This document shows positions 3,946-62,635 of a stretch of 64,000 nt of DNA, one piece after another. The stretch comes from an uncultured bacterium. GTDB taxonomy: Bacteria; Patescibacteriota; Microgenomatia; UBA1400; MFAQ01. Position numbers and translations under genes: made by a program. The first letter of the stretch is position 1; every line of letters begins with the position of its first letter. The stretch covers positions 103,582 through 167,581 of the forward strand of contig CAXBYW010000002.1 of NCBI GenBank assembly GCA_963980225.1, given 5' to 3'. The notes under the pieces were generated by a model, which worked only from the letters and a program-made list of their open reading frames with translations, ran no database searches and was not told where the DNA came from.

Positions 3946-3950
3946 ATAAT

Positions 3951-7898: not shown

Positions 7899-8272
7899 AT
7901 AACAAGCTTTTCTCTTCTGGAAAACGAGGATTTACGTTCGTGGAGCTTCTGGTGGTAATTACTATTATTGCTATCTTGACTGGAGCGGCAGCGGTGTCTT
8001 TTACAAATACTAGTATTCGATCTAGAGATTCTCGGAGAAAGTTAGATATCGAGAACATCAGGTCGGCATTAGAACTTTGTAGGACTGAGTCCGGTAGTTA
8101 TCCCCCATCGATTTATAACAGTATTAGTTGTGGTGGTGAGACATATTTAAATGACACCCCCAAAGATCCTAAGACTGATGCTACGTATACTTATGGATTT
8201 GTGTCGGCCACTTCCTACACCATTACTTGTGTGTTGGAGAGTGGTGACAGTTGTTCGTTTATCAATCCATGA
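7895..8272 (+). CDS. pilin-like protein
   Basis: KRGFTFVELLVVITIIAIL; ATGA overlap. Confidence 0.75.
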   Translation: MNNKLFSSGKRGFTFVELLVVITIIAILTGAAAVSFTNTSIRSRDSRRKLDIENIRSALELCRTESGSYPPSIYNSISCGGETYLNDTPKDPKTDATYTYGFVSATSYTITCVLESGDSCSFINP

Positions 8273-8751: not shown

Positions 8752-8770
8752 TAAAGTTTGCTAAACTTAA

Positions 8771-9142
8771 ATGATGCGAGATGTTAAAGGGCAGTTATTG
8801 TTGGAGGTATTGGTAGCCCTAACCATTCTGGGGATTGTCGCTGTAGCGGTGGTTAGGGTTTCAACTAGGTCTGTTAAAACTTCAAGAGTGACTGGAGACA
8901 GGCAAGAAGCCTTGAGTCTTGCTAAACAGGTTTTGGTAGATGTAGAAAAGGAAAAAGAAGACGATATTATGACCTTTTTTTCTAGATCGATATTAGAAGA
9001 GGATTGTAGCAACAGTGATTATGTATGTACAACAACTTATGATTTCGAAGGGACTGACAACAAAGTACGAGTTGAGGTGTTGGTCGAATGGGAAGAGACT
9101 AGTGTTGGTTTAAGTAAAATATTTACTAAGACAAAACTGTGA
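8771..9142 (+). CDS. minor pseudopilin-like protein
   Basis: KGQLLLEVLVALTILGI, G...E+5 prepilin motif. Confidence 0.6.
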   Translation: MMRDVKGQLLLEVLVALTILGIVAVAVVRVSTRSVKTSRVTGDRQEALSLAKQVLVDVEKEKEDDIMTFFSRSILEEDCSNSDYVCTTTYDFEGTDNKVRVEVLVEWEETSVGLSKIFTKTKL

Positions 9143-9654
9143 AAAAGAATGCTTACACCCTGATAGAGTTAATTGTGGTTATTGGGATAGTGGTGGTACT
9201 GGTTGGTGCTGGTATGGCGGTTTTCTATCAAAGTTTGCAGAGTGGCTCAAGGGTTGATTTTGAGTTGTTTATGAATACTTCAAGTAGAGTGATCGAGAGT
9301 TCAATGACGGATGTTATTAGTTTTGCTAGAGTAGTTAACGTAGATGGTCAGGGTCAAGATGCATGTTTGGCAGCCGGTGATAGTGGTGTGTCGGGTGATA
9401 ATTTGACGATAGATGTGGCAGGTAGATTAACGCAGTATTCTTTGAGTGGTGATTACATAACCTCTGACTCGGCTCAGATAAGCCCGAGTGGTATACAGGT
9501 TAGCGTTTTAAGCTTTAACTGGGTTTGTTTGTTTGGTGAGCGTGAAAAAGTCATGGTTGATTTTACTGCCCAGGCAGAGAAAGACGGTGAAGCTGTCGCA
9601 ATTGAGAAGGCTTACTCATTCGAAGTATTTTTAAAAAACTCTGGATATTTTTAG
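9139..9654 (+). CDS. pilin-like protein (GTG start)
   Basis: KKNAYTLIELIVVIGIVVVL; GTGA overlap with upstream stop. Confidence 0.6.
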   Translation: MKKNAYTLIELIVVIGIVVVLVGAGMAVFYQSLQSGSRVDFELFMNTSSRVIESSMTDVISFARVVNVDGQGQDACLAAGDSGVSGDNLTIDVAGRLTQYSLSGDYITSDSAQISPSGIQVSVLSFNWVCLFGEREKVMVDFTAQAEKDGEAVAIEKAYSFEVFLKNSGYF

Positions 9655-9660
9655 TATAAA

Positions 9661-10467
9661 ATGAAAGTAATGGTAAATAAAAGTGAAAAAGGTCAGGTAG
9701 CGTTAATACTGGTGTTGGCAGCCACGGTGGCAGGAACATTGGTAATTTCCCTGGCGGATAGGTCGACCAGGAACTTAAGAACGCAAACTTTAGATACAGA
9801 AAAGATCAAGGCACTTAAAGGAGCAGAAAGTGGTGTCGAACAAGCCCTTTTGAGTGAAACTTCTGTGGAAGACCTTAGTTTTAGTGAAGGAGTAAGTTTT
9901 ATCACTGATTACTCAAATGAAGGAGGTGATGGGATGGTTTCTGATTTAGTAGATCCAGGAGACGCGATTGCTGTACTAGTTGAAGGAGCGGATAGCGGGG
10001 TGAGTAGCGTAAGGATCTATTTCTCTTCTGAGTCTTCTCTGGCAGCACTGAAGGTGTCTGAGTACAGAGTTGATGGTGTCCAGTATCTGGTGAGCTCCTA
10101 TGCTTTTGACAGTGATTCTGGTCGGGCTTTGGTAAATAAGTTTGCTGACTTGGTGGAGGGTCCGAGTTTTAGTTTCCAGGGGACAACTTTTGGTGGTAGA
10201 TCTAGTGTAGGTGTGAATGCTAATACATTGTTGCCGCCAACTACTAGGTTATTGAGAATTGAGGTTTTGTATTCTGCTAGTAAAATTGGGATTGAGCCAA
10301 TAGGTGGAAATCTACCTGATCAGCAAGTAGTTATATCTTCTTTAGGATCTTATTCGGTGTCGGGAGATGTTAGTGTAAAGAAAAGATTGGAGCTTAGAAA
10401 AGAGATGGAAAAAGTACCGGCTGTGTTTGATAAAGTACTTTATTCTAACTCTAAGTTGGTTCAGTAA
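9661..10467 (+). CDS. pilus-associated protein, PilX/GspK-like N-terminus
   Basis: N-terminal TM KGQVALILVLAATVAGTLVIS then beta-rich region; position in pilin array. Confidence 0.4.
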   Translation: MKVMVNKSEKGQVALILVLAATVAGTLVISLADRSTRNLRTQTLDTEKIKALKGAESGVEQALLSETSVEDLSFSEGVSFITDYSNEGGDGMVSDLVDPGDAIAVLVEGADSGVSSVRIYFSSESSLAALKVSEYRVDGVQYLVSSYAFDSDSGRALVNKFADLVEGPSFSFQGTTFGGRSSVGVNANTLLPPTTRLLRIEVLYSASKIGIEPIGGNLPDQQVVISSLGSYSVSGDVSVKKRLELRKEMEKVPAVFDKVLYSNSKLVQ

Positions 10468-10487
10468 TATATGTATAATAGATTATT

Positions 10488-11498
10488 ATGCCTGCCTATT
10501 TTGGATTAGATATTGGAAGTAGTTCTATTAAGATTTTAGAGTTAAAGGGAGATAAGAAAGTGGAGTCTGTGGGGATGGCTGTGAATCCTGTGGGCAGAAG
10601 TGATGTGGATTTACCAGGTGAACAAAGAGCAAAGATATCAGAGGTAATAAAAGGTTTACTAAAGGAGTCTGGGATAAAAACAAGAAGTGTCGTTCTATCT
10701 ATTCCTGAAGCCTTGGTGTTCTCTAGAATTTTGAAGTTACCGATAATGAGTACTCCAGAATTAGCTTCGGCTATAAAGTGGGAACTTGATCAAGTGGTCC
10801 CCTTTCCTCCAAATGAGATTGAGGTTTCTTGGGTGGTGATTGATAAACCTAAGAAAAAAGTTGGCAATGAAAAGATGAAAGTTTTTGTGGTTGCGGTTCC
10901 TAAAAAAGTAATGGAGAGTTATGTAAAATTTTTAACATTAACAGGACTTGAACCAGAAAGAATAGAAAATGAGGTATTGTCCTTAGTAAGAGGTCTTTCT
11001 AGTTTCACTAATGATAATAAAGTGAGTTTGATACTAGATGTGGGAGCTAGTACAACCAAAATGGTGCTAGTAGAAGGAAGTGAGATACACATGAGTCACA
11101 TCGTCCCCTTGGCAGGTATGGCTATGACTAGAATGATCTCTGAGACTTTTAAGATTCCAATCAATCAGGCTGAGGAATACAAGAGAACTTATGGAGTGGA
11201 CAAGCAACAGGTGGAAGGAAAGATATACAATACACTGAATGGCTTGATAGACAGTTTGGTTGTGGAGATCAAAAAAGTAGTGGCAAATTTCTCAAATATG
11301 GAGAAAGACAAAAGAATAGAAAAAATTGTTTTGGTTGGAGGAGGTGCTTTTCTTAAAGGTTTTACTAGTGTTTTGGTGGAAAAAACAGGATTAGATGTTG
11401 TAATTGGTGAGCCTTTTGGGCCAGTTGAAGTGCCTGAAAAAATAAAAGCTTCTGGGGTTTTGTATGCGACCACTCTGGGATTAGCAATTTCTGAGTAA
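10488..11498 (+). CDS. pilM: type IV pilus assembly protein PilM (actin-like ATPase fold)
   Basis: N-terminal YFGLDIGSSSIKILEL, 336 aa. Confidence 0.8.
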   Translation: MPAYFGLDIGSSSIKILELKGDKKVESVGMAVNPVGRSDVDLPGEQRAKISEVIKGLLKESGIKTRSVVLSIPEALVFSRILKLPIMSTPELASAIKWELDQVVPFPPNEIEVSWVVIDKPKKKVGNEKMKVFVVAVPKKVMESYVKFLTLTGLEPERIENEVLSLVRGLSSFTNDNKVSLILDVGASTTKMVLVEGSEIHMSHIVPLAGMAMTRMISETFKIPINQAEEYKRTYGVDKQQVEGKIYNTLNGLIDSLVVEIKKVVANFSNMEKDKRIEKIVLVGGGAFLKGFTSVLVEKTGLDVVIGEPFGPVEVPEKIKASGVLYATTLGLAISE

Positions 11499-11500
11499 AG

Positions 11501-12040
11501 ATGGCTAAAATAAATTTACTTAAGCAAGAATGGGTTGGAAAAAGTCAGATCAAGAAATTGAAGATGGCAGCCAGGGTAATTTTGATTTTAACTGTAAGTG
11601 GTTTTTTACTGCAAACCTTTTACATTACAGGTAGATTGGTTTATTTAAGAAATAAGATTAATAACACACAAGATGAGATAAAAACCTTAAATAGTGTGTT
11701 TTCGACTAATAAAAATTTGACAGAAAACTATGTCTGGGCTCAAGGGATGTTAGAGATACTAGAGAGTGAAAGAAACAAGGAATATAAGTACAAGGATTAT
11801 TTAGTAGAAATAAACAGCTGGTTAAATGAAGGAACGTCTTTAGTGGGAGTAAGTTTTACTGAGAGAGATGAAATTACTTTCCTTGTTTATGCTGATGGAA
11901 TAGATGATTATAGAGCTTTTGAGACTAATTTAAACTTAAGACAACTAGATGAAAATTTTGGTTTCACAGTAGTTGAACAAGATTCTTTAAGCAGAATAGA
12001 AGATGGTACTTATAAAGTAAAGATTAAATTAAAAATATGA
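11501..12040 (+). CDS. PilN-like bitopic membrane protein
   Basis: single N-terminal TM, 179 aa, directly after pilM. Confidence 0.5.
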   Translation: MAKINLLKQEWVGKSQIKKLKMAARVILILTVSGFLLQTFYITGRLVYLRNKINNTQDEIKTLNSVFSTNKNLTENYVWAQGMLEILESERNKEYKYKDYLVEINSWLNEGTSLVGVSFTERDEITFLVYADGIDDYRAFETNLNLRQLDENFGFTVVEQDSLSRIEDGTYKVKIKLKI

Positions 12041-26532: not shown

Positions 26533-27120
26533 CTATTCTAAGTCGTTGAAAAACTGTAAGACTCCTTTGGCCCAAGAACCTTCGGATGGTGGAGTGTAGG
26601 TTTGCATGACTTGGTGTGGGTCTTTGTCGTGCAAGCCTTTAAGAAATATCCTTTTAAACTGAGGGGCGATTTTGATGATGGCTTGGTCGTAACTTTCGAA
26701 CCTAGTGACTTTGTCACCATATATCCCCCATCCCCAGCAGTTGTAGGATTCGTAAGGGATTTTTTTACAAAGATTAGATTCTTGTTGGGCAATGGCTACC
26801 ATCCAACGATAGTCGAAGTCGTGCTTGTCTGCTACTTGCACCAAAAGATCTGCATAAGGTATCAATGGAGAGTTATATCTTTCGAGGTATTGCCTGATGA
26901 TCTCTGCACGAGCGTCTGCAGTCTTGACGGATGTTTGGATTTGAGAAGCTTGAGCTGGAAGTGAGGCAAAGACGAGAGAGTAGTCCGAAGGGTCTCCAAA
27001 GTTTATGTTGGTATACGCTCCCATGACTTTATCTTGGGAAGATAGGTTGTTGTTTATGGCAATTGCGACTTTGATGTTTAACAAGAAGAGCAAGCTGAGG
27101 ATGATGGTTTTTTTAGTCAT
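26533..27120 (-). CDS. secreted protein, possible lysozyme-like hydrolase
   Basis: signal peptide MTKKTIILSLLFLLNIKVAIA; AIAQQESN motif weakly resembles a lytic-transglycosylase catalytic Glu region. Confidence 0.5.
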   Translation of the reverse strand: MTKKTIILSLLFLLNIKVAIAINNNLSSQDKVMGAYTNINFGDPSDYSLVFASLPAQASQIQTSVKTADARAEIIRQYLERYNSPLIPYADLLVQVADKHDFDYRWMVAIAQQESNLCKKIPYESYNCWGWGIYGDKVTRFESYDQAIIKIAPQFKRIFLKGLHDKDPHQVMQTYTPPSEGSWAKGVLQFFNDLE

Positions 27121-27382: not shown

Positions 27383-27459
27383 GGTGGATGTAGCTCAGTT
27401 GGTTAGAGCGCCTCTCTGTGGCAGAGGAGGTCGGGGGTTCGAATCCCCTCATCCACCCA
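27383..27459 (+). tRNA. tRNA-His (GTG) with G-1
   Basis: ggtggatgtagctcagttggttagagc, anticodon loop ctGTGgc, extra 5' G. Confidence 0.85.
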
Positions 27460-27502
27460 AAGTAGTGATATAGATTGATATACCGTGATATACCGTGATA
27501 TA
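27459..27502 (+). repeat. direct repeat A copy 1 (tRNA-His 3' flank, with internal tandem ccgtgatata)
   Basis: aaagtagtgatatagattgatataccgtgatataccgtgatata; near-identical copy at 28442. Confidence 0.7.
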
Positions 27503-27571: not shown

Positions 27572-28237
27572 TTATTTAAGCTTACTTTCCCACTCATTAA
27601 AAAAATCTTCTAGAAAATCCTCCATAATTTTATGTCTTTTATTAGCTAGATCAATTCCCGTCTTTGTGTTCATGTTTTCCCTCAACTTAAGAAGTTTTTC
27701 ATAAAAATGGGCAATTGTAGAGGTTCTGTGATTTGGGTCATCAATAAAATCCTTATCATATTCAAGATTTTCGCCTGGATTATATAAAGATAGGCCGTGG
27801 GAACCTCCAAATGCAAATGTTCTAGCAATTCCAATAGCTCCAATTGCATCAAGGTTATCTGCATCTTGAACTATTTTTAATTCTAAAGTCTTGTCTCCAA
27901 TTTTATTAGTCCAGTCATAAATATCGTGTAATTCAACTACTTTAATAATAGGAACAATCTTTGAACTTGAAATCTTAGATTTTTTCAGCACCTCTCTAAT
28001 AATTTCCAGGGCTTCTGGTCCAAAATGAGATTTTCCTGTTTTTTTCTCCCACGGTCTACAGATATCGTGCACTAATGATGCCGCCCCAACCACTACACCA
28101 TCTCCACCTTCTTTTTTTACTAGATACTTAGAAACATTAAAAACCCGCTCAGCATGATAATAATCATGTCCACTAGACTCACTTTCCAAGAATTTCTTAA
28201 CCCTCTTTGATAGCTCGCTAAATTTACTCTCAATCAT
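27572..28237 (-). CDS. HD-domain phosphohydrolase
   Basis: H..HDYYHAERV, LVHDI, QDADNLDA metal-binding motifs. Confidence 0.8.
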   Translation of the reverse strand: MIESKFSELSKRVKKFLESESSGHDYYHAERVFNVSKYLVKKEGGDGVVVGAASLVHDICRPWEKKTGKSHFGPEALEIIREVLKKSKISSSKIVPIIKVVELHDIYDWTNKIGDKTLELKIVQDADNLDAIGAIGIARTFAFGGSHGLSLYNPGENLEYDKDFIDDPNHRTSTIAHFYEKLLKLRENMNTKTGIDLANKRHKIMEDFLEDFFNEWESKLK

Positions 28238-28383
28238 ATTCTGAATTATATACCAAGCAAAAAAGGTTCGTGTTACCTCTAGAGTTGTTTTTGAAGAGTC
28301 CGATCTATGCTCGCCTGTTAAGCCCTTAGATCCTATTCTGCATTTTAAAAGACATATTCTTTCTTGAGACCTTTCAAGGCTAC

Positions 28384-28441
28384 GTGTCTGCCTAGATAGT
28401 TAGTATAGTAATTAGTCCGAACATCGTTGCATAAGGGACCC
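28384..28441 (+). repeat. cassette-junction repeat R copy 1
   Basis: gtgtctgcctagatagttagtatagtaattagtccgaacatcgttgcataagggaccc; four direct copies at 28.4-31.2 kb. Confidence 0.7.
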
Positions 28442-28475
28442 AAAGTAATGATATAGATTGATATATCGTGATATA
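28442..28475 (+). repeat. direct repeat A copy 2
   Basis: aaagtaatgatatagattgatatatcgtgatata matches tRNA-His flank. Confidence 0.7.
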
Positions 28476-29835: not shown

Positions 29836-29877
29836 CCATCAGCGCCTGTAGCTGTTCTTGAAGCTCGTCAACAGTAA

Positions 29878-29935
29878 GTGTTTCTGCAAGTAGTTAGCTT
29901 GGTAATTAGTTCGAACATCGTTGCATAAGGGACCC
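29878..29935 (+). repeat. repeat R copy 2
   Basis: gtgtttctgcaagtagttagcttggtaattagttcgaacatcgttgcataagggaccc. Confidence 0.7.
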
Positions 29936-30049
29936 TAGAGTCCTATAGTTTGACTTTTACTGATATATTTGGTAAAATATAATCCTGGTTTAAACACTCG
30001 TAGTAGTACATTTACAGCTTAAATATATAGATCCTAGGAGGACCTACCC

Positions 30050-30588: not shown

Positions 30589-30647
30589 ATTGTCTAAGTA
30601 GTTAAATAAAAATTTCGAACGTCGTTTCGTATACCTCGTAACTGTAG

Positions 30648-30706
30648 GTGTCTCTGTCTATATTTAGCCTCGTAATTAGTCCGAACATCATTGCATAAGG
30701 GACTCT
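30648..30706 (+). repeat. repeat R copy 3
   Basis: gtgtctctgtctatatttagcctcgtaattagtccgaacatcattgcataagggactc. Confidence 0.7.
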
Positions 30707-30781: not shown

Positions 30782-31093
30782 TTAATAGGACTCCACTACA
30801 CTTTTGCTTTCTGTGCACTCGAAACAGAAAAAAACGTAAATCATTCCTACATCACCAAACATATATTCTTGCTTATCTGAATCATTTTCGAATGAGTCAA
30901 TTTGAGCAATAAAGCTCATTTCCTTTTTACATGATGGACAGCTTTCATTATTGTCAGAACCTCCTTGTGTTTGTATCCAATCTGGTTTGCCACCAAGCTT
31001 AGTTTTTTGTCCTAACTTCTTTGAATCTGAGTCGATTGCAGAGTCTTCTGCTTTTTCAAGTGTAACTTTGTACTGTTGAAGTGTTTTAACCAT
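30782..31093 (-). CDS. zinc-ribbon protein (cassette gene)
   Basis: CPSCKK...CFECTE tetracysteine, 103 aa. Confidence 0.5.
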   Translation of the reverse strand: MVKTLQQYKVTLEKAEDSAIDSDSKKLGQKTKLGGKPDWIQTQGGSDNNESCPSCKKEMSFIAQIDSFENDSDKQEYMFGDVGMIYVFFCFECTESKSVVESY

Positions 31094-31181
31094 ATGTTAA
31101 ATTATATCAAGTATTAAATAAAAAGTTCGGATTAAACTAGAAAATTAGCATAATTTTGCTTAAAATGCTTTAATTCGATAT

Positions 31182-31236
31182 GTTTCCCGATATATTGAGC
31201 ATGGTAATTAGTCCGAACATCATTGCATAAGGGCCC
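31182..31236 (+). repeat. repeat R copy 4
   Basis: gtttcccgatatattgagcatggtaattagtccgaacatcattgcataagggccc. Confidence 0.7.
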
Positions 31237-31314
31237 ACTTACTTGATATAGTTTGGTATATCAGCATATTCTCTCTATTTATTTTCTGGTTTTCGTTCAG
31301 TGTAGAATATTGGT

Positions 31315-32103
31315 ATGGAAGAGTCTACTCTCGAGCCTTTAACAAAAACTAGATTGACCTCTTTAAGGGGAAAGTGGTCTAAGCCTGATAGGGATAAAGG
31401 ACGCACTTGGGAATTTGATGGCGTGCCTTATTCTCCAGAACATTTCATGAGCTATAACCATGAAATGAGAGAGGGATTGAGTGATTATGACTGTAAAACT
31501 TTTGATGAATTGGTGACTATTTTAGAGAAAAAATTAGGTAGAAAGCCAGATGTTATTGATTTAATGGGAGGGGCGTATTTTTTAAGTGAACCAGGGAATG
31601 TAAATACATTAGTGGCTATAAGAGTGCATGATAAGGACAAGGAGTTTATTGAAGTCGCTAATGAAAAAGATGGTAAGGAGTCTCGTTTGATTAAGAAGGT
31701 TACAGGTGCATCTAATAGGCGTGTTATTGATGCGGATGTGTTGACAACCAAAGGCTGGAAAGATATCGAGAAGGCTGGCTTGCCAAAGGCTGACTTGTTG
31801 GTATGTCGTCCAGTTGGACCGTTTGACGTTAAACATGCTATGGATAGTAGGTGGGATGAACCAGGGGCATATGTAGGATTGTATGCTTCGTTGTTTGGGC
31901 GTATGTTAAGGTTGGTAAATAAAAAAGATGGGGTGATTTTTACTGAAGTTCCAGACATTTATACCGAAAAAGAGGTTAAGAAATTCTTTGTAGGAGTTGA
32001 TGAAAAAGAGGGTTCACAGACTGAGGTGTTCACTGTGCCTGATAAGGATTATCATTGGGGTGGAAGAAAAAGAAGATATGCAGTTATTGAATTTACTAAA
32101 TAG
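31315..32103 (+). CDS. hypothetical protein, possible Rossmann-like fold
   Basis: 262-aa ORF; VIDLMGG weakly resembles SAM-methyltransferase motif I. Confidence 0.45.
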   Translation: MEESTLEPLTKTRLTSLRGKWSKPDRDKGRTWEFDGVPYSPEHFMSYNHEMREGLSDYDCKTFDELVTILEKKLGRKPDVIDLMGGAYFLSEPGNVNTLVAIRVHDKDKEFIEVANEKDGKESRLIKKVTGASNRRVIDADVLTTKGWKDIEKAGLPKADLLVCRPVGPFDVKHAMDSRWDEPGAYVGLYASLFGRMLRLVNKKDGVIFTEVPDIYTEKEVKKFFVGVDEKEGSQTEVFTVPDKDYHWGGRKRRYAVIEFTK

Positions 32104-33775
32104 TTAGAAACTGATATTCTGGTTGTCGGTTGAACTGATAAATAAAGATTTTCATCTCGTCTAGCGAATAATCAAATTCAGTCTTTTGGTTGCGGAATGT
32201 GTCCAGTAATCCACCCATTACCGACAAAGTTTTTGAGTTCATGCCTGAGCTGGGCACGACTTGAGAGTTCGGACCGAGCCTCTTTATGTTAGAGAATAAT
32301 TTATCTGGCTTTATGTGTAGTTTTCTGTCTTCATGGATAATATCTGCTCCTACAATAGACAGGAGCGTTCGTTTGGTATCAATGTCCCCTGTTTTCCATA
32401 GAGTTTGAGCGTTACAAGAGAAGTTGAATACGTCAATCAGGTAATCAGTCCATTTGTCATGAGCTTTATCTTCCTTCTTTAGCTGGTTGGCTAGTTTAAC
32501 TTTACCTATTACATACTTCTGCTTAAGCTGCCTGTATTCATCATTAGTTAAGAAACTCCTATCTTCGTTCATGGGAGAAAGCCATTGCTCAGTAAGGTTA
32601 TCTATTGTCTTTGTAATTCGCTCATGTTCTCTTTTAATTGATTCTCTTGTCTTGTCTCGGACTGTCTTATCCTGTTCTTCCATCTTTCTAACCCATTTAG
32701 TTGCAAACTTAACAAAGCTTTTTTTCAGTTTTATTTGACCGAGAAAGTTGGTTACTTGCTCTTCTAATTTGGGAGATGAAATCATGGGTTGACTGCATCC
32801 TTTATTACCATGCTTGGTGCACCTGTAATAGGAATATGTCTTTCCAGACTTTTTAGTGTGTGTTTCTCCCGATAGTTGATAACCGCATTTACATTTAATG
32901 AATCCTGTTAAAGGGAAGTCGTGAGATTTACCTCTGGGTTTAGACTTTATTGCTAACTTTTCTTGCACTAGATTAAACTCATCATCGGTTACCATTACCT
33001 TATGGATACCCTGATGGAGAGTCCTTGAATACAAGAACCGACCAGTATAAAAAGGGTTTCTTAGGATCTTGTACATCTGAGTTCGAGAGACTAGTTTGTC
33101 TCTGGAGTTTCGGATTCCCATTTCTTGTGCTTTCTTGGCTAGGGCATCTGTTGAGAAGTTCCCTGTCATTGCTAGTTCGAAGATTTTTCTGATAAGGTCG
33201 AATGAAATTGGATCAGGTGAAATAGTTTTCTCTCCCTGTGTCATATGTTTATCGTTTACATAGCCTACTGGAGCAAGTACAGGAGCCAAGCCCTTATCCA
33301 CCTTTGCTTGTAGGCCTCTCTTGGTGTCCTCTCTAAGGTCTCTGATGAAGCGTTGAGCCTGACTACCTTCAACCGCCAGGATGAAGTCGCTGTCGTCTGC
33401 TGTGTATGTCTTGGTGGGAGTAACAATCTCTTTGATTGTGCCATCATAGAGGAGTTGTCTAATCATTCCTTCGTCTTGGGGATTTCTGAATAGTCTGTTT
33501 GGCTTCCAACAAACAATACCTTTAATATCTTTTTCGTTTAAGGTATGAACCATGTTGTTAAATTCTGGACGACCAGGTTTTTTTGCTGATTTACTCTCAG
33601 TGAATGTATCTGATATCGTGAGATCTTTTGATTGGATAATATCTTTTAGTGCAGCTAGTTGGCTTTCAACGGAAGCAACCTGTCTATCTTCACTCTCGGT
33701 AGATTTCCTAACGTATATAACGTAATCCTGACTTTGCGCTTTCATCTTCTCTGGCTTATATTTACTTAACTTCAT
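32096..33775 (-). CDS. large serine recombinase (resolvase/invertase catalytic domain plus zinc-ribbon and coiled-coil C-terminus)
   Basis: N-terminal YVRKSTESEDRQ..SVESQ catalytic Ser region, C..C zinc ribbon, 559 aa. Confidence 0.85.
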   Translation of the reverse strand: MKLSKYKPEKMKAQSQDYVIYVRKSTESEDRQVASVESQLAALKDIIQSKDLTISDTFTESKSAKKPGRPEFNNMVHTLNEKDIKGIVCWKPNRLFRNPQDEGMIRQLLYDGTIKEIVTPTKTYTADDSDFILAVEGSQAQRFIRDLREDTKRGLQAKVDKGLAPVLAPVGYVNDKHMTQGEKTISPDPISFDLIRKIFELAMTGNFSTDALAKKAQEMGIRNSRDKLVSRTQMYKILRNPFYTGRFLYSRTLHQGIHKVMVTDDEFNLVQEKLAIKSKPRGKSHDFPLTGFIKCKCGYQLSGETHTKKSGKTYSYYRCTKHGNKGCSQPMISSPKLEEQVTNFLGQIKLKKSFVKFATKWVRKMEEQDKTVRDKTRESIKREHERITKTIDNLTEQWLSPMNEDRSFLTNDEYRQLKQKYVIGKVKLANQLKKEDKAHDKWTDYLIDVFNFSCNAQTLWKTGDIDTKRTLLSIVGADIIHEDRKLHIKPDKLFSNIKRLGPNSQVVPSSGMNSKTLSVMGGLLDTFRNQKTEFDYSLDEMKIFIYQFNRQPEYQFLTI

Positions 33776-33975
33776 GATATCTTATTTGGATTAATTGTTG
33801 GTGGTGGAATTTTCTTAAACTCTTTGAATAACAAGATTAATCCATTGGCTTTTTGAGTTGCATCTTCTGTATTTAGGATTTCTCCATATTCCCTGCGGTA
33901 GATTTTGATAAATTCAGTGATAGCATTTTTTGGTAGCATTTTATTTTTTTGTAAATACATCCACTGCATCCTCAT
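33772..33975 (-). CDS. small hypothetical protein upstream of recombinase
   Basis: 67 aa, overlaps recombinase start by 4 nt. Confidence 0.35.
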   Translation of the reverse strand: MRMQWMYLQKNKMLPKNAITEFIKIYRREYGEILNTEDATQKANGLILLFKEFKKIPPPTINPNKIS

Positions 33976-35239
33976 AGGTTTTGTAATTCAAGCTTGTTTG
34001 TTCGGGAGAATCTAACTCCTTTTCCTTGTAAATTTCTGTTTCCGAATTGAAATCTAATCTAATTAAGTTGCTTCCTTTGGCCTCTGCTGAATCTCTGTCT
34101 GAATCAATGATGATTGCCACCTTGCTATTGAGATGTGATTGATCAAATTTTTGCAAGGGACGCCAAAAAAGAATTACTTTGTCGAATTGAGAACTGAATC
34201 CTCCACCACCATAAATGTCTTTAGTTGATGGGCGCAACATGATGACAGCTGGCCGATCAAACATCTCTTCTTCTCTGCCAGTAGCAATTAACTCGTTTAA
34301 ACCCTCTGCTTTTTCATTCCATGCAACATTAGAAGGGATGGTGTGCGCAACTACGATTACGGCTGACTCTAGAGTCTTAGTGAGGCTAACCATCTGCTGA
34401 CCGACCTTAGCTGCTGTCTTCCAGTTGCCTTGGTTTTTGAATACTGTAATATTGTCCACAATAATGACCTTGCAACCTTCCTCAGACTGATTTTTAATGC
34501 TCCCTAATACTTTTTCAGCATCTACTAATCCATCAGTCATGAGTTCTCCTGAGTCTGTCCCTGCATAAACCATGTTTTTAATGATCTTGGATCTAAGCTC
34601 TCTAGCAACTTCAAGTTTGTCCCTAGTAACTCCATTCATTTTGGCTAGTTTCCTGGCTATTTGTTTAAGAGTGAGTTCGGTCGAGGTGATTTTTTTAGCC
34701 TGGTCATTTTTTTTGGGATCACTATCGTAAACACCGTCAACAGTACTCGCTTTAAGAATTAAATCACAAGCTAGTTCGCTGGCAAATTGGGCTACTGCAG
34801 AGTCAGTAGAAAAACCAGGCTTACCTAATCCACCCGCCAAGATTACTAGACGGTCTTCATCAAGGTGATGTTTTGCCTTTAGTCTGATATATGGCTCGGC
34901 TAGTTCTGGTATGTGAATCGTGGTCATTAACCTGGTGTCTTTAGCCCCGTTTCTTATAAAAGCCTCCCTTAAGGCAATGCCGTTAATTATTGTAGCCATC
35001 ATTCCCATAGAATCGGCCTCGTTTGAGTCAACGTATTCAGATTTTTCTCTACCACGAAAGATATTACCCCCACCAACCACCATCGCTAGTTGTATGCCTG
35101 TGTTCTTTACGATCTCAATTATTTGTTTGGCTACTGCATCATAACGAGAGAAGCTAATATCATCTTCCTTATTGGAAAATAGTTCTCCGCTAACTTTGAC
35201 AATGTATCTACTTGAATTCCTTTCTGTTTCCGGCATCAA
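33941..35239 (-). CDS. fusion protein: UMP-kinase (PyrH, amino-acid-kinase fold) N-terminal domain plus degenerate DnaB-C/RecA-like C-terminal domain
   Basis: IVKVSGELF, VVGGGNIFRG, MGMMATIINGIAL, ILAGGLGKPGFSTDSAVAQFASE match PyrH; C-terminal half VIIVDNITVF...VVAHT...GREEEMFDRPAVIMLRP matches DnaB C-terminal Walker B/H4 but has no P-loop lysine. Confidence 0.7.
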   Translation of the reverse strand: MMPETERNSSRYIVKVSGELFSNKEDDISFSRYDAVAKQIIEIVKNTGIQLAMVVGGGNIFRGREKSEYVDSNEADSMGMMATIINGIALREAFIRNGAKDTRLMTTIHIPELAEPYIRLKAKHHLDEDRLVILAGGLGKPGFSTDSAVAQFASELACDLILKASTVDGVYDSDPKKNDQAKKITSTELTLKQIARKLAKMNGVTRDKLEVARELRSKIIKNMVYAGTDSGELMTDGLVDAEKVLGSIKNQSEEGCKVIIVDNITVFKNQGNWKTAAKVGQQMVSLTKTLESAVIVVAHTIPSNVAWNEKAEGLNELIATGREEEMFDRPAVIMLRPSTKDIYGGGGFSSQFDKVILFWRPLQKFDQSHLNSKVAIIIDSDRDSAEAKGSNLIRLDFNSETEIYKEKELDSPEQTSLNYKTYEDAVDVFTKK

Positions 35240-35333
35240 GGACAGAGTATATCAAATATGTTTGGGTTTACTACCTAGATATTTTTATATAGCGTGAGTT
35301 TAGTAGTATAAGAGTGTAAAATATACCGAGATT

Positions 35334-35407
35334 GGGTCTGTAGCTCAGCTGGTTAGAGCGTCTGCCTCTTAAGCAGAATGTCGTGGGTTCGAGTCCCACC
35401 AGACCCA
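35334..35407 (+). tRNA. tRNA-Lys (CTT)
   Basis: gggtctgtagctcagctggttagagc, anticodon loop ctCTTaa. Confidence 0.85.
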
Positions 35408-37140
35408 CACACGCGCCCGTAGCTCAGTGGATTAGAGCATTTCGCTTCGGACGAAAGGGTCGGGGGTTCGAGTCCCTCCGGGCGCACCATATCTACTTTC
35501 TTTCCGATCTTGATCTCTTTTAGACTGAAGATGCCGTCTAAATTAGGTGTTCCAGAAACTAAGTTTTCATAAGTCGGTATTTCTTCGAATAATAGACCGA
35601 AAAGAACCCCTTTTTGTTGTGGATCAGGCTCGTTTCTTATCAATTTATCTGGGTGTTCCATAAAATAAATATAAAGGTTAATAGTTTCTTCGATATCTAC
35701 CTGCTCGTCTTCTCTTTTATCTCTTTGTTGCTTTGCTTGTGCAATATTAAGTTCTATCTTATTGATTTCATCCTCTACTTTTTTCATCATAATCTTACCA
35801 GTTACAATTGGTACTTTGTCTAGCCAAGCTTGCTGTTCTCCTTGAAGTCTAATTACGTTTTTTCCGTAGTCTATTGCTTCCTGTTGAGCTTCTTTTTGTT
35901 TTTTCTTCCATGTGTCTAATACAACACCTTTAAATAATCTTAAAAAATCTTTATCAAATTTAACTGATTCAAGGAATGAATAAATTTGATCGTGAAGTTT
36001 CTGTCTAGGGACACCCCAATATTTATGGTTTCTATCACAATGGTATGTTGGAAACTTTTTGCCTGATTTGCCCTTGGGGCTACTTGCCAATAAAGGTTTG
36101 TTGCATAGTTCACATCTTACGTGATTTTTAAATGGAAATAGAGGGTTGTGTCGACTTCTTACTTGTTCTTTGACATTGAGCTTTACTTCTAAGTGGTTAT
36201 TAGGAAGCTCCAGAATGACGACCTTGCCCCTATTAGCTCTGTTAAAGGTATCAATAGACACCAATCCTTTATATTGGGTTCTAACAGGTTTAGGTTTTGT
36301 CCAAGTCTCGTGAATGACCCCAGCGTATTCAGTTTGCTGTATGAATCTTTGTAGCTGCTTAACCCCTAACGGTTTGCCTATTATTTTTCCTATTGGTGTC
36401 TTTTTGCCAGTAGATGATTCACCCCATCTCACTCTGTCCCTGTTTTTAAAACCTAAACGATTGATTCTTTTAACGATCTGTTTGTCATTTAAGGTTGTAT
36501 TTACCCTTAAGTTAAACATTTTTTTAATCCACTTAACTTCTTCTGGATGAGGAGTGCGAACAACTCTAATACCATCAACCTTAGTTGCTATTTTTTCGTT
36601 TACAAAACCAAAAGGTGCGTTCCTGACTGCATAACCCTTTTGGCGATAACTAATTTCAGCCCCAATCATTCTTGTTAGGATGTCTGACACTTCTCGTTCC
36701 GCTCTGTTGGCTTCCATCAGCTCAGCTTGTTCAGAAGGATTTATGACACTCCATGAGTACTTAAGTCCTAGATGATCAAGAGTATTTATTTCTTCACCAA
36801 TCACCTGATAAGTGTCGATCAATTTAACTCCATATTTTCTAATTTGCTTTTTTAGTTCTTTGTATCCAATAATTCCGTGTCTGCTGAAACGATCTATGCT
36901 CTTGATAATTAAGAAGTCTATATTTGAATGCGACTTAAGGTATTCACAAATGTCGTCTATATAACTCACTCCGACTTTTGTTGAACTGTGTACATATTCA
37001 AATGTTTCTATTATGTTCCAATTCTGCCTCTGAGCAAATCTTTCACATTGTATTTTTTGATCTCCAAGCGTTTCTCCTTGCTGAAATTGTCTGTCTGTTG
37101 AGATCCTAACTAGAATGATGGCGTTTTTCTGGTCATTCAT
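35353..37140 (-). CDS. large serine recombinase; ORF 3' end runs through tRNA-Arg/tRNA-Lys, true stop uncertain
   Basis: N-terminal ILVRISTDRQ catalytic region, C..C zinc ribbon; last ~45 codons are antisense of the tRNA genes. Confidence 0.8.
   Translation of the reverse strand: MNDQKNAIILVRISTDRQFQQGETLGDQKIQCERFAQRQNWNIIETFEYVHSSTKVGVSYIDDICEYLKSHSNIDFLIIKSIDRFSRHGIIGYKELKKQIRKYGVKLIDTYQVIGEEINTLDHLGLKYSWSVINPSEQAELMEANRAEREVSDILTRMIGAEISYRQKGYAVRNAPFGFVNEKIATKVDGIRVVRTPHPEEVKWIKKMFNLRVNTTLNDKQIVKRINRLGFKNRDRVRWGESSTGKKTPIGKIIGKPLGVKQLQRFIQQTEYAGVIHETWTKPKPVRTQYKGLVSIDTFNRANRGKVVILELPNNHLEVKLNVKEQVRSRHNPLFPFKNHVRCELCNKPLLASSPKGKSGKKFPTYHCDRNHKYWGVPRQKLHDQIYSFLESVKFDKDFLRLFKGVVLDTWKKKQKEAQQEAIDYGKNVIRLQGEQQAWLDKVPIVTGKIMMKKVEDEINKIELNIAQAKQQRDKREDEQVDIEETINLYIYFMEHPDKLIRNEPDPQQKGVLFGLLFEEIPTYENLVSGTPNLDGIFSLKEIKIGKKVDMVRPEGLEPPTLSSEAKCSNPLSYGRVCGSGGTRTHDILLKRQTL
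35413..35489 (+). tRNA. tRNA-Arg (TCG)
   Basis: gcgcccgtagctcagtggattagagc, anticodon loop ctTCGga, encoded CCA. Confidence 0.85.
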
Positions 37141-40512: not shown

Positions 40513-40654
40513 GTGTTTTATTCTCAACTTGTTAAAGGTTAAGCGATTAAATAGCCTTGGTTTGTGGGTTCAAGAATTGATCTATAAAGGATTGGATAAT
40601 ACGCGGAGAACCTAGAAGACAAAGTGTTCCAATTCAAAACCACTTGGCGCACAA
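40513..40654 (+). repeat. Rep-B copy 1 (~135-nt intergenic repeat)
   Basis: gtgtttta...cttgttaaaggttaagcgattaaatagccttgg...gagaacctagaagacaaagtgttccaattcaaaaccacttggcgcacaa. Confidence 0.7.
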
Positions 40655-40689
40655 TTCTAAAATTTAGCCTCTGGTGATATACTTGAATT

Positions 40690-41478
40690 ATGGATTTCAA
40701 AGAGATACATTTCCCCGGAGTACTACCAAAAATAAGGTTTCCCACAGATATCTTACTTGCTCTTCCTGAAAACTCTTTACTCCCCTTAGAACAACAACAC
40801 TTCTTGTTATACATTCCTTGGAAAGATGAATACCTATCTTTAGTTCCAGAAGAGTTTCAAGATTTTTACAAACAGATACTCCCCTATTTACGGGTTCGTA
40901 CCACGGACGTACACACTGCCATCTCATCAAGCTATCTAGATCTCCTTCTTAATAGAATTAACAAACCTATTAATCGTAGAGTAGTCGCCCTCTCTCTGTT
41001 TCTACATGACGTAGGTTGGAGTAAGTTAACTGAAAAGGAAATTGCTAATAGCCTAGGAATAAAAGGTCTAAGGTTAACTAATGCTGCCTTGAGTCCTAAA
41101 GAGAAACATGCTGTTGAGGGTGAAAAAATAGCTCGAGAGATCCTCACGTCCTATCAATTTGACCCACCACTTACCACTGAAAAAATCGACTTAATCTGCA
41201 AGGCAGTTTTATATCACGATAAGCCAGAAGCAGTGGCTGGCTCCAAAGAATCAGTGCCACTAGAAATACAGGTTTTAATTGATCTAGATCACCTCTGGTC
41301 TTTTACTCACGAGAACTTTTGGCAAGACTCTGTTAGAAAAGGTGTAGCTCCAATAGAATATCTTCAAAATCTTACCGACGACCTTGACTCTTACTTTGTA
41401 ACTACAGAAGGCAAAATCTTAGCCAGAGAACTACTTACAAAAAGAGCGGTGGAAGTTAAATCTTGGGAGGGGAAATAG
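40690..41478 (+). CDS. HD-domain phosphohydrolase
   Basis: LFLHDVGW and YHDKPE motifs. Confidence 0.7.
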   Translation: MDFKEIHFPGVLPKIRFPTDILLALPENSLLPLEQQHFLLYIPWKDEYLSLVPEEFQDFYKQILPYLRVRTTDVHTAISSSYLDLLLNRINKPINRRVVALSLFLHDVGWSKLTEKEIANSLGIKGLRLTNAALSPKEKHAVEGEKIAREILTSYQFDPPLTTEKIDLICKAVLYHDKPEAVAGSKESVPLEIQVLIDLDHLWSFTHENFWQDSVRKGVAPIEYLQNLTDDLDSYFVTTEGKILARELLTKRAVEVKSWEGK

Positions 41479-41535
41479 TTTCCAATATAGTTTCATAACC
41501 CTGCGTATATTTATATAGAGTTTAATACTCTATAT

Positions 41536-41658
41536 GTTAAAGATTAAGCGAATGAATAGCCTTGATTTTCAGATCCAGGAATAGATTTATAAAGAACAGG
41601 GTAATACTTTGAGAACCTAGAAGACAAAGTGTTCCAGCTCAAAACCACTTGGCGCACA
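41536..41658 (+). repeat. Rep-B copy 2
   Basis: gttaaagattaagcgaatgaatagccttg...gttccagctcaaaaccacttggcgcacaa. Confidence 0.7.
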
Positions 41659-41684
41659 AAAATAAAATGGGTTGGTATGACGGC

Positions 41685-42487: not shown

Positions 42488-42630
42488 AGTGTTTTATCCC
42501 CCACCTGTTAGAGATTAAATAGTTAGATAGCCTTGATTTACAGGCTCAGGGATTGACTTGTAAAGGACAGGATAATACTGGGAGAACCTATTTGCCAGGG
42601 TGTTCCAGTTCAAAACCACTTGGTGCACAA
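42488..42630 (+). repeat. Rep-B copy 3
   Basis: gtgttttatcc...atagccttgatttacaggctcagg...gttccagttcaaaaccacttggtgcacaa. Confidence 0.7.
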
Positions 42631-43179: not shown

Positions 43180-43202
43180 CTATTGATTACTAGTGTTTTA
43201 CT

Positions 43203-43333
43203 CTCTACTTGTTAAAGATTAGATACTTAGATAGCCTTGGTAGTTAGGGTCAGGAATTGATCTGTAAAGGACAGGATAATACTTGGAGAACCTAGACGAC
43301 AAGGTGTTCCAGTTCAAAACCACTTGGCGCACA
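43203..43333 (+). repeat. Rep-B copy 4
   Basis: gtgttttactc...atagccttggtagttagggtcagg...gttccagttcaaaaccacttggcgcaca. Confidence 0.7.
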
Positions 43334-43345
43334 TGGATAAAATAG

Positions 43346-57682: not shown

Positions 57683-58165
57683 ATGTATCAACAAATCTTT
57701 GAACTCCATGCGGATTTACTTAAGGCTTTGTCCCACCCCAAACGACTGGAGGTAGTTAACCTACTTCGAGATAAAGGTTTAAATGTAGGAGAGATGCAGG
57801 AAATGTTAGGGTTACCCCAGGCAAACTTGAGTCAACACTTAATGGTTTTACGTGAAGCAGGAGTGGTAGAGACAGAAAAAAAGGGCAAGGAAGTGTTTTA
57901 TAAACTGACTAGTAAGAATTTTGTTAAGGCCAGTGATTTACTTAGAGAAGTACTGATTAAGATACACAAAGATGATGACTTGGCGGATGAGTTAACTATA
58001 AAAATGAAGGATCTGGTGCCGGTAGTGGCGGATCCGGTTTGCAAGATGCGGGTATCCCCTAAGACGGCGGCCAGAGGATTTAAGTATGAAGGACAGACCT
58101 ACTATTTCTGTGCAAGTGGATGTTTGGAGAGTTTTAAAAAGAAGCCTAAAAAATATATTAATTAA
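57683..58165 (+). CDS. ArsR/SmtB-family metalloregulator fused to C-terminal TRASH/YHS metal-binding domain
   Basis: HTH LKALSHPKRLEVVNLL...NLSQHL; C-terminal DPVCKMRV...YYFCASGC. Confidence 0.75.
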   Translation: MYQQIFELHADLLKALSHPKRLEVVNLLRDKGLNVGEMQEMLGLPQANLSQHLMVLREAGVVETEKKGKEVFYKLTSKNFVKASDLLREVLIKIHKDDDLADELTIKMKDLVPVVADPVCKMRVSPKTAARGFKYEGQTYYFCASGCLESFKKKPKKYIN

Positions 58166-58175
58166 ATAATAAAAA

Positions 58176-58661
58176 ATGGATAAAAAAATAATAGCAGGTA
58201 TCGTGTTTGGAGTTTTGGTCTTGTTGGGAGGAACTGTCTTTTTGGCTACAAAAGTAAGTTCTCCTGCACAAATAGAGATGGTTCAAGGTGCTATGGTGGA
58301 AGTTGGTGAAACCGCATGGGAGTGGGGAGATATAGGAATAAGTGATGGTAAGGTAGAAAAAGAGTTTGAGATAAGGAACACCGGTTCTGAAACATTAAAA
58401 CTTTTTAATGTTGCTACTTCTTGTATGTGTACTACTGCAATGTTTGTAGATGATGAAAGTCGTATTTTTGGAATGCACACCAAGTCTGGCTATGCAAAAG
58501 AAGTCCCGGCAGGAGAAAGTGTTAAGGTCAGAGTGGTTTTTGATCCACTGTTTCATGGCCCAGATGGAGTTGGTCCTATTAGTCGTCAGGTTACCATGAT
58601 GACTAACGATTCTGAAAATAGCCAGTTAAGTTTTATGCTTACCGCTACGGTTAGAAAATAA
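58176..58661 (+). CDS. DUF1573-like membrane-anchored beta-sandwich protein
   Basis: N-terminal TM, CMC motif, 161 aa; copper-cluster context. Confidence 0.5.
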   Translation: MDKKIIAGIVFGVLVLLGGTVFLATKVSSPAQIEMVQGAMVEVGETAWEWGDIGISDGKVEKEFEIRNTGSETLKLFNVATSCMCTTAMFVDDESRIFGMHTKSGYAKEVPAGESVKVRVVFDPLFHGPDGVGPISRQVTMMTNDSENSQLSFMLTATVRK

Positions 58662-58682
58662 TAATTATTAATATATTAAAGA

Positions 58683-59615
58683 ATGAATAAAAAAATAAAG
58701 AAAGTAATGCCAGTATTTATCATATTAATAGCTGTCTTAGGTGTGTCTATTGTCTGGGCAAGTTTGTTTGACGTTAAAATAAAAGCAAGTGACGGCTTAG
58801 TATCTTTGGTAAATCGAATTTACCCTACACCCACTCCCCTACCAGAACCAAGTATAGAAAACTTAGAAGTAGCAGTAGTACCAGAAGAAGGTTATGAAGT
58901 GAAGATCAACTGGGGTGATACGGGTAAGAAGCTGGTGAAGGCTGGTGGGATTGATATGGGTAAATTTGAGAAGAATTACTCGACTCCTAACTACGCGGAA
59001 CTTATGTCTTACTTAACTGAGAGTAAGGATAAGGGAATTAATATAAACAAAGAAAGCTCGTATTTTTGGGTAAACACTCTGTGGGCCCTGGGGTTAACGC
59101 AAAATTCCAAGGTGCTTTCTGAAGGGATTATGGGTACGGAGTATAAAGATAGACTGGCTAATTTTGCTTCTACTGGAGGCTGGACCTTGGGATCTAAGGC
59201 GGCAGTAGACCTTTATAGTTCTAGCAATATTCTTGATTTGGATGAGGCAGAGCAAGAGATGGTGAGTGAGATCACTTCTAATATATATAGACCTTGTTGT
59301 GGTAATCCCACCTCTTTCCCTGACTGTAACCACGGTATGGCTATTTTAGGATTAGTTGAGTTAATGGTAGACCAAGGTTTTAGTGAGGATGAGATTTACA
59401 AAGCCTCGCTGATGTTTAATTCGTACTGGTTCCCCCAGACATATATTGATCTGGCCTATTACTTCCAGACCGAAGAAAATACGTTGTGGGAAGAGTTAGA
59501 TGCTAAAGAGCTCTTGTCAGCTCAGTATAGTTCTGCACCCGGTTATCAGGCAATTAAAGAAAAAATAGGTGATGTTCCGGGAACGGAATCTAGAGGTGGA
59601 AGTTGTGGAGCTTAA
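58683..59615 (+). CDS. membrane-anchored Cys-rich hypothetical protein
   Basis: N-terminal TM, CCGNPTSFPDCNHG, 310 aa. Confidence 0.45.
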   Translation: MNKKIKKVMPVFIILIAVLGVSIVWASLFDVKIKASDGLVSLVNRIYPTPTPLPEPSIENLEVAVVPEEGYEVKINWGDTGKKLVKAGGIDMGKFEKNYSTPNYAELMSYLTESKDKGININKESSYFWVNTLWALGLTQNSKVLSEGIMGTEYKDRLANFASTGGWTLGSKAAVDLYSSSNILDLDEAEQEMVSEITSNIYRPCCGNPTSFPDCNHGMAILGLVELMVDQGFSEDEIYKASLMFNSYWFPQTYIDLAYYFQTEENTLWEELDAKELLSAQYSSAPGYQAIKEKIGDVPGTESRGGSCGA

Positions 59616-59630
59616 AAAATATAAAAAATT

Positions 59631-60344
59631 ATGAAAAACAAAATACTGTTGGTTTTAGGGTTAGTAGGGATACTAGGAGTTTGGTCTTTGAAAAAAACTA
59701 GTAAACTTCAAGACTCGTCTCCTAAGGTTGTTTCTTTGCAGTCACAAGACTTTGATGAATTGGTCGCTAGCAAAGATGTGTTCTTATTGGATGTTCACAC
59801 ACCAGAACAAAAACATATTGCAGGAACCGATGCTTTCATTCCCTATGATGACATAAAGGGAGGGTTGGGGCAGTTACCTGAGGATAAAAGTACCCCGATC
59901 TTGGTTTACTGTAGATCTGGTTCTATGAGCAAAAGCGCAAGTAAGGATTTGGTGGAGTTAGGTTATAGCGAGGTTTATGACTTGGTGGGTGGGATTAATG
60001 CATATAGGGAAACCCATGTTGGAGTAACTTTAATGCCAGAGACAGTTGAATTGGGAGAAGTGATTTACAAAGATGGAGCAAGTACAGAGTTTGTTTTGAC
60101 TAACAATACTCCCAATGAACTAAAAATAGAGAGAGTTACTGGGTCGTGTGCTTGCACCCAGCCAAGTATAGAAAAGGATGTCTTGGCTCCGTATGAGTCT
60201 ACTATCATTAAGGTTAAATTTGAACCTTCTGTTCATAAGGATGACTCGGATATAGGAGACTTAGTAAGACTGGTGTTTGTAGACACAGATAATGAGAATT
60301 TTGAGCACCTGGTAGGTAAGATTACGGCAAAAGTAGTAAAGTAA
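59631..60344 (+). CDS. rhodanese-domain protein with DUF1573-like C-terminal domain
   Basis: active-site loop LVYCRSGSMS, C-terminal CAC motif, N-terminal TM. Confidence 0.65.
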   Translation: MKNKILLVLGLVGILGVWSLKKTSKLQDSSPKVVSLQSQDFDELVASKDVFLLDVHTPEQKHIAGTDAFIPYDDIKGGLGQLPEDKSTPILVYCRSGSMSKSASKDLVELGYSEVYDLVGGINAYRETHVGVTLMPETVELGEVIYKDGASTEFVLTNNTPNELKIERVTGSCACTQPSIEKDVLAPYESTIIKVKFEPSVHKDDSDIGDLVRLVFVDTDNENFEHLVGKITAKVVK

Positions 60345-60350
60345 TATTAG

Positions 60351-62531: not shown

Positions 62532-62533
62532 TG

Positions 62534-62617: not shown

Positions 62618-62635
62618 TGTTGATGATATTTTACC

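Follow-up and report, generated by a model that had tools for sequence, protein, structure and literature searches.

Organization of the locus

The DNA analysed here (the window, a stretch of 64 kb) contains, at 33941..35239 on the minus strand, a single uninterrupted open reading frame (ORF) of 432 codons when read from a TTG; an ATG at 35236 is an alternative start that would give a product of 431 aa. The ORF has a PyrH-like N-terminal part and a DnaB-like C-terminal part without Walker A. A previous sequence-only reading of this DNA had described the gene as lying between two serine recombinases and as sitting beside tRNA-Lys/Arg genes. Our analysis showed the same: phage-type recombinase genes at 32096..33775 and 35490..37140 (Pfam, PHROG 95) flank it, and tRNA-Lys(CTT) and tRNA-Arg(TCG) are found immediately upstream. 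The features of the locus are as follows.

32096..33775, minus strand: large serine recombinase of the phage integrase type, 559 aa (Pfam Resolvase, Recombinase and Zn_ribbon_recom; PHROG 95)
32209..32217, plus strand: putative att core ATCCACCCA, 9 nt (alignment of recombinase 3′ ends with tRNA-His)
33772..33975, minus strand: small ORF, 67 codons as listed, with a conserved part from MLPKN, just past the stop codon of the chimera
33941..34687, minus strand: 3′ fragment of a phage DnaB-type (SF4) helicase gene, codons 185–432 plus the stop; the N-terminal ~68 residues with the Walker A are missing
34676..34699, minus strand: junction GCTAAAAAAAT / CACCTCGACCGAA, pyrH on the left and helicase on the right (three-way DNA alignment)
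34688..35239, minus strand: pyrH-derived 5′ fragment (codons 1–184 of the ORF), which encodes the N-terminal ~77% of a bacterial UMP kinase
35334..35489, plus strand: tRNA-Lys(CTT) and tRNA-Arg(TCG) (ARAGORN, Rfam)
35490..37140, minus strand: another large serine recombinase, its real coding sequence being for about 550 aa (Pfam Resolvase, 1.3e-9; PHROG 95, 1.6e-29)

The PyrH part of the ORF

The PyrH motifs VKVSGE, GGGNIFRG, MGMMATIINGIAL and ILAGGLGKPGFSTDSAVA were all found in the ORF, and the N-terminal motifs of the amino-acid-kinase fold (the K-x-S-G-E loop, GGGN, the acceptor-site segment and G-x-P-x-F-S-T-D) are present and conserved. Pfam AA_kinase (PF00696) matched aa 11–187 with an E-value of 4e-22. 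The motifs had been recognized from the sequence alone, but the PyrH span of ~225 aa proposed with them was too long, as the homology covers residues 1–184 (profile positions 2–195 of 234 in Pfam and 3–179 of 233 in TIGR02075).

A search of 5.8 billion clustered proteins gave 1,739 PyrH relatives. Only one match, P0001, covered the whole protein, and it is identical to the query. The other matches listed were ordinary PyrH proteins of 237–275 aa, with at most 81% identity and 38–50% of the query covered; several of these carry the name Saccharimonadales or Saccharibacteria in their sources, and the normal length of PyrH among the Saccharibacteria relatives is 237–245 aa. When the query was aligned with nine close relatives, the similarity, high as far as NDQAKKI (residue 184), stopped abruptly there. 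Beyond this residue, intact relatives contain ~56 conserved residues (TYxEALLKELxVMDSTAFAMC...PIFVF...SFGSL) that the query does not have. The complete C-terminal lobe of PyrH (VMDxTAF, PIFVF, SFGSL) is absent from the chimera and was found in no frame of the window. Solved UMP kinases could be aligned only to about their residue 185–200 of ~240. The PyrH part is truncated.

In the search against the TIGR02075 UMP kinase equivalog, the chimera scored 181.7 bits and failed the cut-off of 243.9, and the closest intact relative (P0002) scored 246.1 bits over profile positions 2–228. Only one of 79 conserved PyrH positions deviates in the chimera, and the average among intact homologues is 0.79. 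No other, intact pyrH allele of this species was found in the protein database, where the best other match is 81% identical; in the genome collection, which contains neither this species nor its closest relative and was searched for a second pyrH, the best match is 74% identical. In JGI, the chimeric protein is named uridylate kinase.

The helicase part of the ORF

One close relative of residues 185–432 was found, a DnaB-type helicase of 304 aa (P0121). Residues 186–419 of the chimera align without gaps with residues 70–303 of this protein, and 122 of the 234 positions are identical (52%). P0121 possesses the Pfam DnaB_C domain (54.2 bits against a cut-off of 27) and a KaiC ATPase domain, and its contigs, which are phage-like, carry genes for a phage head-tail adaptor and a CHAP lysin. 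The helicase half matched PHROG 239 'DNA primase/helicase' at 4.6e-7. The second half of the ORF is of phage origin. No closer relative of the phage-derived element, above ~26% identity, was found in the viral collections and the phage database, and a metagenome scan with the helicase half found nothing.

Of the two domain models suggested for checking the ORF in the sequence-only reading, AA_kinase matched as given above, but DnaB_C (PF03796) gave no match in Pfam at E<=1; NCBIfam likewise gave none for residues 185–432. An HMMER scan of 1.84 billion representatives identified 82 relatives of the helicase half, 54 of them at E<=1e-10. These are either stand-alone proteins of ~300 aa or proteins of ~560–745 aa in which a CHC2 zinc finger and a Toprim primase domain precede the helicase part. 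The profile of this family matched DnaB (4a1f, 3.7e-20; 2r6a) and a phage DnaB-like helicase (3bgw/3bh0, presumably SPP1 G40P) in the PDB, and also T7 gp4 (1e0j, 1cr0), RecA and KaiC, in agreement with the DnaB-like nature that had been supposed for the C-terminal half. The AlphaFold2 models had a mean pLDDT of 40.7 for the C-terminal half (alignment of two sequences) and 37.3 for the whole chimera (single sequence) and are unusable.

The chimeric ORF does not contain a Walker A P-loop (G-x-x-x-x-G-K-[ST]). Among the homologues checked, 33 of 38 have a Walker A, G-x-E-K-S-G-K-[ST] and mostly G-L-E-K-S-G-K-S/T, upstream of the position equivalent to the breakpoint, at a distance of 23–42 and usually 27 residues. 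The helicase half is therefore without a P-loop because the gene was cut 27 codons after it, and the helicase, which had been called 'inactivated' before, lost the motif by truncation rather than in the course of evolution. The helicase part is truncated as well. Downstream of the cut, all 12 family-invariant helicase columns (17-sequence family alignment) are kept in the chimera, and the kept positions include T-E, D-N-x-T in the Walker B region, a His, YGGG, a Q and W-R-P. Our analysis thus agreed with the previous description of a DnaB-like body lacking Walker A, but not with its length of ~200 aa, since this part has 248 residues (185–432).

The junction and the missing gene pieces

A three-way DNA alignment of the window, an intact pyrH gene (L016) and an intact helicase gene (L001) located the switch within GCTAAAAAAAT / CACCTCGACC. 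The breakpoint is sharp, and the exact joint is at 34687/34688, not at about 34560, the place named earlier for a joint that would refute the fusion. The junction sequence occurs only once in the window, and no direct or inverted repeat or dyad symmetry was found at the junction.

The window, which extends 34 kb downstream and 29 kb upstream, encodes neither the 3′ end of pyrH nor the 5′ end of the helicase gene. Upon tblastn with E. coli PyrH, the C-termini of nine close PyrH proteins and the helicase N-terminus, only chance-level matches were obtained, for example at 26614–26694, antisense inside a real gene (E 0.06–0.28). A profile made from eight synthetic sequences, each with a helicase N-terminus and a PyrH C-terminus, found no protein spanning both halves of such a reciprocal chimera. 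Its short matches to the PyrH C-terminus come from ordinary fragments, which overlap the stretch that the chimera retains. No ancestral, undeleted locus was found.

Recombinases, the small ORF and the putative att site

For the recombinase at 32096..33775, PF00239, PF07508 and PF13408 were all above their cut-offs, the match to the PHROG 95 integrase was 1e-73, and the catalytic-serine motif YVRKSTESEDRQ is visible. This recombinase and the helicase fragment are parts of the same phage-derived remnant. A metagenome scan with the recombinase found a relative with 73% identity (381/521) in L029/L030. The 3′ end of that gene abuts a tRNA-His gene, and terminase genes and a small-ORF homologue lie ahead of it. 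The small ORF of the window is 64% identical to that homologue, an ORF of 60 aa, and is a conserved partner gene located immediately upstream of the recombinase.

The homology between the recombinases of the window and of L029/L030 ends at ATCCACCCA, at residue 521, and the gene in the window runs 38 codons further. ATCCACCCA is also the 3′ end of the tRNA-His of the window (27451–27459). This suggests that the att core of the recombinase at 32096..33775 lies inside the 3′ end of its own gene and is specific for tRNA-His. The relative with 73% identity is integrated at precisely this site. The putative core is 2.5 kb away from the pyrH::helicase joint; the joint is thus not an att site. The junction was considered as a recombinase site and rejected, with neither a repeat nor a dyad there and the att core elsewhere.

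The second recombinase abuts the 3′ end of tRNA-Arg, and its ORF continues antisense through tRNA-Arg and tRNA-Lys to 35353. It opens a separate island across the tRNA pair.

Genomic context of the pyrH fragment

The pyrH fragment and both tRNA genes form a block of 785 bp that is conserved with the closest relative, L016 (82% DNA identity), in which the same tRNA-Arg/tRNA-Lys/pyrH layout is found. The homology to L016 is limited to 35491..34707 of the window, from the 3′ end of tRNA-Arg to about codon 176 of pyrH. On the other side of the pyrH fragment, the helicase fragment, the small ORF and the 559-aa recombinase follow in that order. Two local intergenic repeat families flank the block, and they flank pyrH in L016 too, in the same order and orientation. 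Moreover, a HIT-BipA-PIF1 gene group lies 4–10 kb from pyrH both here and in another Saccharibacteria contig. Because the repeat families match L016 and this gene group is near pyrH, the pyrH fragment appears to be at its native place. Other host genes (tig, a class II aminoacyl-tRNA synthetase and tRNA genes) are found within 6–10 kb.

As for the nature of the repeat families, they did no better than shuffled controls as remnants of tRNA 3′ ends (p about 0.5–0.99), and as structured RNAs they gave no Rfam match and at most one compensatory pair per fold. Two ORFs of 262 aa considered as duplicates look unrelated when their translations are compared by eye.

Distribution of the chimeric ORF

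Searches of 5.8 billion clustered and 1.84 billion representative proteins found the PyrH plus helicase architecture in P0001 and P0122 only. This agrees with the previous remark that the architecture is absent from described families. At least 22 contigs, drawn from ENA, JGI, Logan and NCBI, encode exactly this protein. Ten of these contigs, from different samples and assemblers, match the window at 99.95–100% DNA identity over as much as 21.3 kb, without any difference in the ORF. At least ten independently assembled contigs with identical sequence indicate that the ORF does not result from an assembly or sequencing error. Their near-identity also indicates that all the observations come from one near-clonal population: the contigs that carry the chimera represent one near-clonal Saccharibacteria population, and the chimera is restricted to it. 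The only variant, P0122, has two residue differences, one of which is F142L; the Phe at this position is invariant in the ten closest PyrH proteins and at least 90% conserved in a 50-sequence alignment.

Origin of the chimeric ORF

These results suggest, with a probability of roughly 0.8 in our judgement, that the ORF is a junction chimera, in which the host pyrH is broken after codon 184 and joined in-frame to about codon 69 of a phage helicase gene, that is, the scar of a deletion and not an evolved two-domain protein. In it, the first three-quarters of pyrH would be united with the last three-quarters of the helicase gene. A phage-derived element with the helicase gene, the small ORF and the serine integrase would once have been located downstream of pyrH. 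A non-reciprocal deletion by illegitimate recombination may then have removed the 3′ end of pyrH, the DNA between the two and most of the element, up to about codon 68 of the helicase. The two frames would be in register by a one-in-three chance, so that the reading frame now runs on to the helicase's own stop codon. Deletion is the most likely mechanism, as judged from the fact that the missing pieces were not found.

Any product expressed from the pyrH promoter would combine an amino-acid-kinase fold that is incomplete with a RecA-like core that lacks the P-loop. It probably works neither as a UMP kinase nor as a helicase, because part of the kinase C-terminal lobe is lost and the score falls below the equivalog threshold, and because the P-loop of the helicase is lost. 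No decay was observed in either fragment: the 432-codon frame is open and the conserved residues are kept. This fits a recent event and also fits selection, and the two are inseparable here because the data come from a single clone with no polymorphism among the contigs; we consider that the event was probably recent.

Several other explanations were weighed. According to the first, the block of tRNA-Arg, tRNA-Lys and truncated pyrH is captured, formerly host DNA lying between two mobile elements, so that an intact pyrH would exist elsewhere and the chimera would be harmless. The conserved part is indeed only 785 bp long with foreign DNA carrying recombinase genes on both sides, its best relative has only 82% DNA identity, and the population maintains itself in many samples with the truncated gene. 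However, the repeat families surround pyrH in the same order and orientation in L016, and the distance of 4–10 kb between pyrH and the HIT-BipA-PIF1 group is shared with another Saccharibacteria contig. We consider a captured block unlikely.

There is a very slim chance that the ORF arose by a reciprocal, recombinase-catalysed integration or a large inversion, with sites in pyrH and in the helicase gene, and represents a reversible split of the kind called 'active lysogeny'. The ORF does lie between two large serine recombinase genes that seem to be intact and have catalytic-serine motifs, and such recombinases are known to split and restore comK, spsM and sigK. But the reciprocal pieces are absent within 34 kb downstream and 29 kb upstream, where host genes (tig, the aminoacyl-tRNA synthetase, tRNAs) are already met within 6–10 kb, and the database holds no reciprocal chimeric protein although the clone is well represented. 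In addition, the putative att core of the adjacent recombinase matches tRNA-His and lies in the 3′ end of the recombinase gene, away from the junction.

The sequence-only reading had suggested that the protein could be a mobile-element replication factor or a defence/anti-defence protein. As a selected, functional fusion it would combine a nucleotide-binding kinase head with an oligomerising helicase body. The open frame, the intact conserved residues of both halves, the mobile-element context and the fixation in the sampled population are what one would expect of it. Yet the protein is known from one clonal lineage only and hence without evolutionary replication, both domains are cut within their folds and not at their borders, and one of the two known variants alters a near-invariant (at least 90%) Phe of PyrH (F142L). 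We found the proposal unsupported, and a functional fusion extremely improbable. An assembly or sequencing artefact joining separate genes, which only the unusual architecture would suggest, is a negligible possibility, as SPAdes, MEGAHIT and JGI contigs from different samples have the same DNA sequence at the junction. Two genes joined by a sequencing error had been named earlier as a case that would refute the fusion; fragments of two genes are indeed joined, but by a rearrangement of the genome itself.

Nearly all bacteria have pyrH, in a single copy, and it is normally essential. Here all sampled members of a natural Saccharibacteria population have the gene in truncated form. That a population should live with a truncated pyrH allele alone needs explaining, above all how it phosphorylates UMP or makes UDP. 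If the chimera were the sole pyrH of the lineage, either the fragment of 184 residues, possibly held by the oligomerising helicase remnant, would still act as a UMP kinase, or the organism would do without a canonical UMP kinase and take UDP/UTP from its host; we regard this as very unlikely. The case is of practical value in showing that, where mobile elements decay, an in-frame junction can look like a domain fusion, and that mapping each half to its intact homologues exposes such false fusions. Neither the name 'UMP kinase' nor the status of a new family should be passed on with the chimera.

Comparison with known systems

With bacterial UMP kinases, the chimera shares residues 1–184, which are those of a typical Saccharibacteria PyrH with 78 of the 79 conserved positions kept, but it lacks the last ~56 residues, has a foreign tail of 248 residues and remains below the equivalog cut-off. 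Similarly, residues 185–432 resemble the replicative helicases and primase-helicases of phages in the DnaB family (SF4), such as T7 gp4, SPP1 G40P and DnaB itself, in keeping the downstream core motifs. They differ from this family (PF03796) in lacking the first ~68 residues with the Walker A, and the fragment alone reaches no Pfam or NCBIfam helicase model.

Serine-integrase elements are known to split host genes, as A118 does in comK, SPbeta in spsM and skin in sigK, and these genes can be restored. In contrast to these three, the break found here is not at an att site, the 3′ part of the host gene is not kept nearby, and nothing suggests reversibility. The locus nevertheless resembles both such integrase-split host genes and the chimeric ORFs at the borders of decaying prophages and islands, in that a host gene is broken beside a phage-type serine integrase and a hybrid frame runs across the boundary. 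It belongs to a type of structure that is already known, in which a hybrid frame forms at the margin of a mobile element in decay.

A second serine recombinase at tRNA-Arg

35353-37140, minus strand: ORF of the second serine recombinase
35334-35489, plus strand: tRNAs opposite this ORF

The ORF of the second serine recombinase reaches the tRNA-Arg 3′ end without a stop codon of its own, and it reads on through tRNA-Arg and tRNA-Lys in antisense for about 45 codons. The tRNA-Arg 3′ end is also the exact limit of homology to L016, the closest relative locus. Together, these results suggest integration of a roughly 5-kb element, spanning 35490 to ~40500, at the tRNA-Arg 3′ end. On the plus strand, GC skew was very strongly positive (0.25-0.44 per kb) at 1-12000 and 58000-64000 of the window, and much weaker or negative at ~27 to 45 kb, where the islands sit.

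A variant of the chimera and a possible gene fragment

30782-31093, minus strand: ORF of 103 aa, DUF1963 match (profile 133-196 of 216)

The sole sequence variant of the pyrH-helicase chimera was P0122, found on a 5.4 kb ENA contig. It carries two changes, A386G and F142L; the second falls in G-F-S-T-D, a conserved PyrH segment. This single observation may hint at relaxed constraint on the chimera. The match of the 103-aa ORF is restricted to the C-terminal third of DUF1963, and this ORF may be a further gene fragment in the region.

Intergenic repeats

40513-40670, 41473-41659, 42488-42630, 43192-43334: GTGTTCCAGTTCAAAACCACTTGGCGCACA repeat
L016 478-635, 2246-2449: GTGTTCCAGTTCAAAACCACTTGGCGCACA repeat
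28353-28475, 29847-29970, 30617-30704, 31149-31270, also 27455-27492: GTAATTAGTCCGAACATCGTTGCATAAGGGACC repeat
L016 5871-5947: GTAATTAGTCCGAACATCGTTGCATAAGGGACC repeat

An intergenic repeat of ~160 nt with the core GTGTTCCAGTTCAAAACCACTTGGCGCACA separates successive single genes that are unrelated. Its conservation in a second species, where the adjoining proteins have no detectable similarity, is 76-89%. The repeat had no match in Rfam and showed almost no covariation. On the opposite side of the locus, single genes are separated by a second intergenic repeat family, with the core GTAATTAGTCCGAACATCGTTGCATAAGGGACC. There, the HD-domain gene 27572..28237 is bracketed by a 38-nt direct repeat (copies 95% identical), one copy of which directly follows tRNA-His. 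When compared with tRNA 3′ ends, the repeat cores showed no significant similarity.

The 559-aa serine recombinase and its att core

32096-32220: recombinase gene 3′ end
27451-27459: tRNA-His 3′ end
L029 3484-3674, L030 2980-3170: regions in metagenome contigs with a related recombinase

For the 559-aa serine recombinase, we infer an att core within the 3′ end of the gene's own coding sequence. The recombinase of the relative that is integrated at tRNA-His stops at 522 aa, just within the tRNA; the one in the window continues for another 38 codons. With such a core and these differing protein ends, integration would alter the integrase C-terminus. Some mycobacteriophages have integration-dependent control, which such a change would recall.
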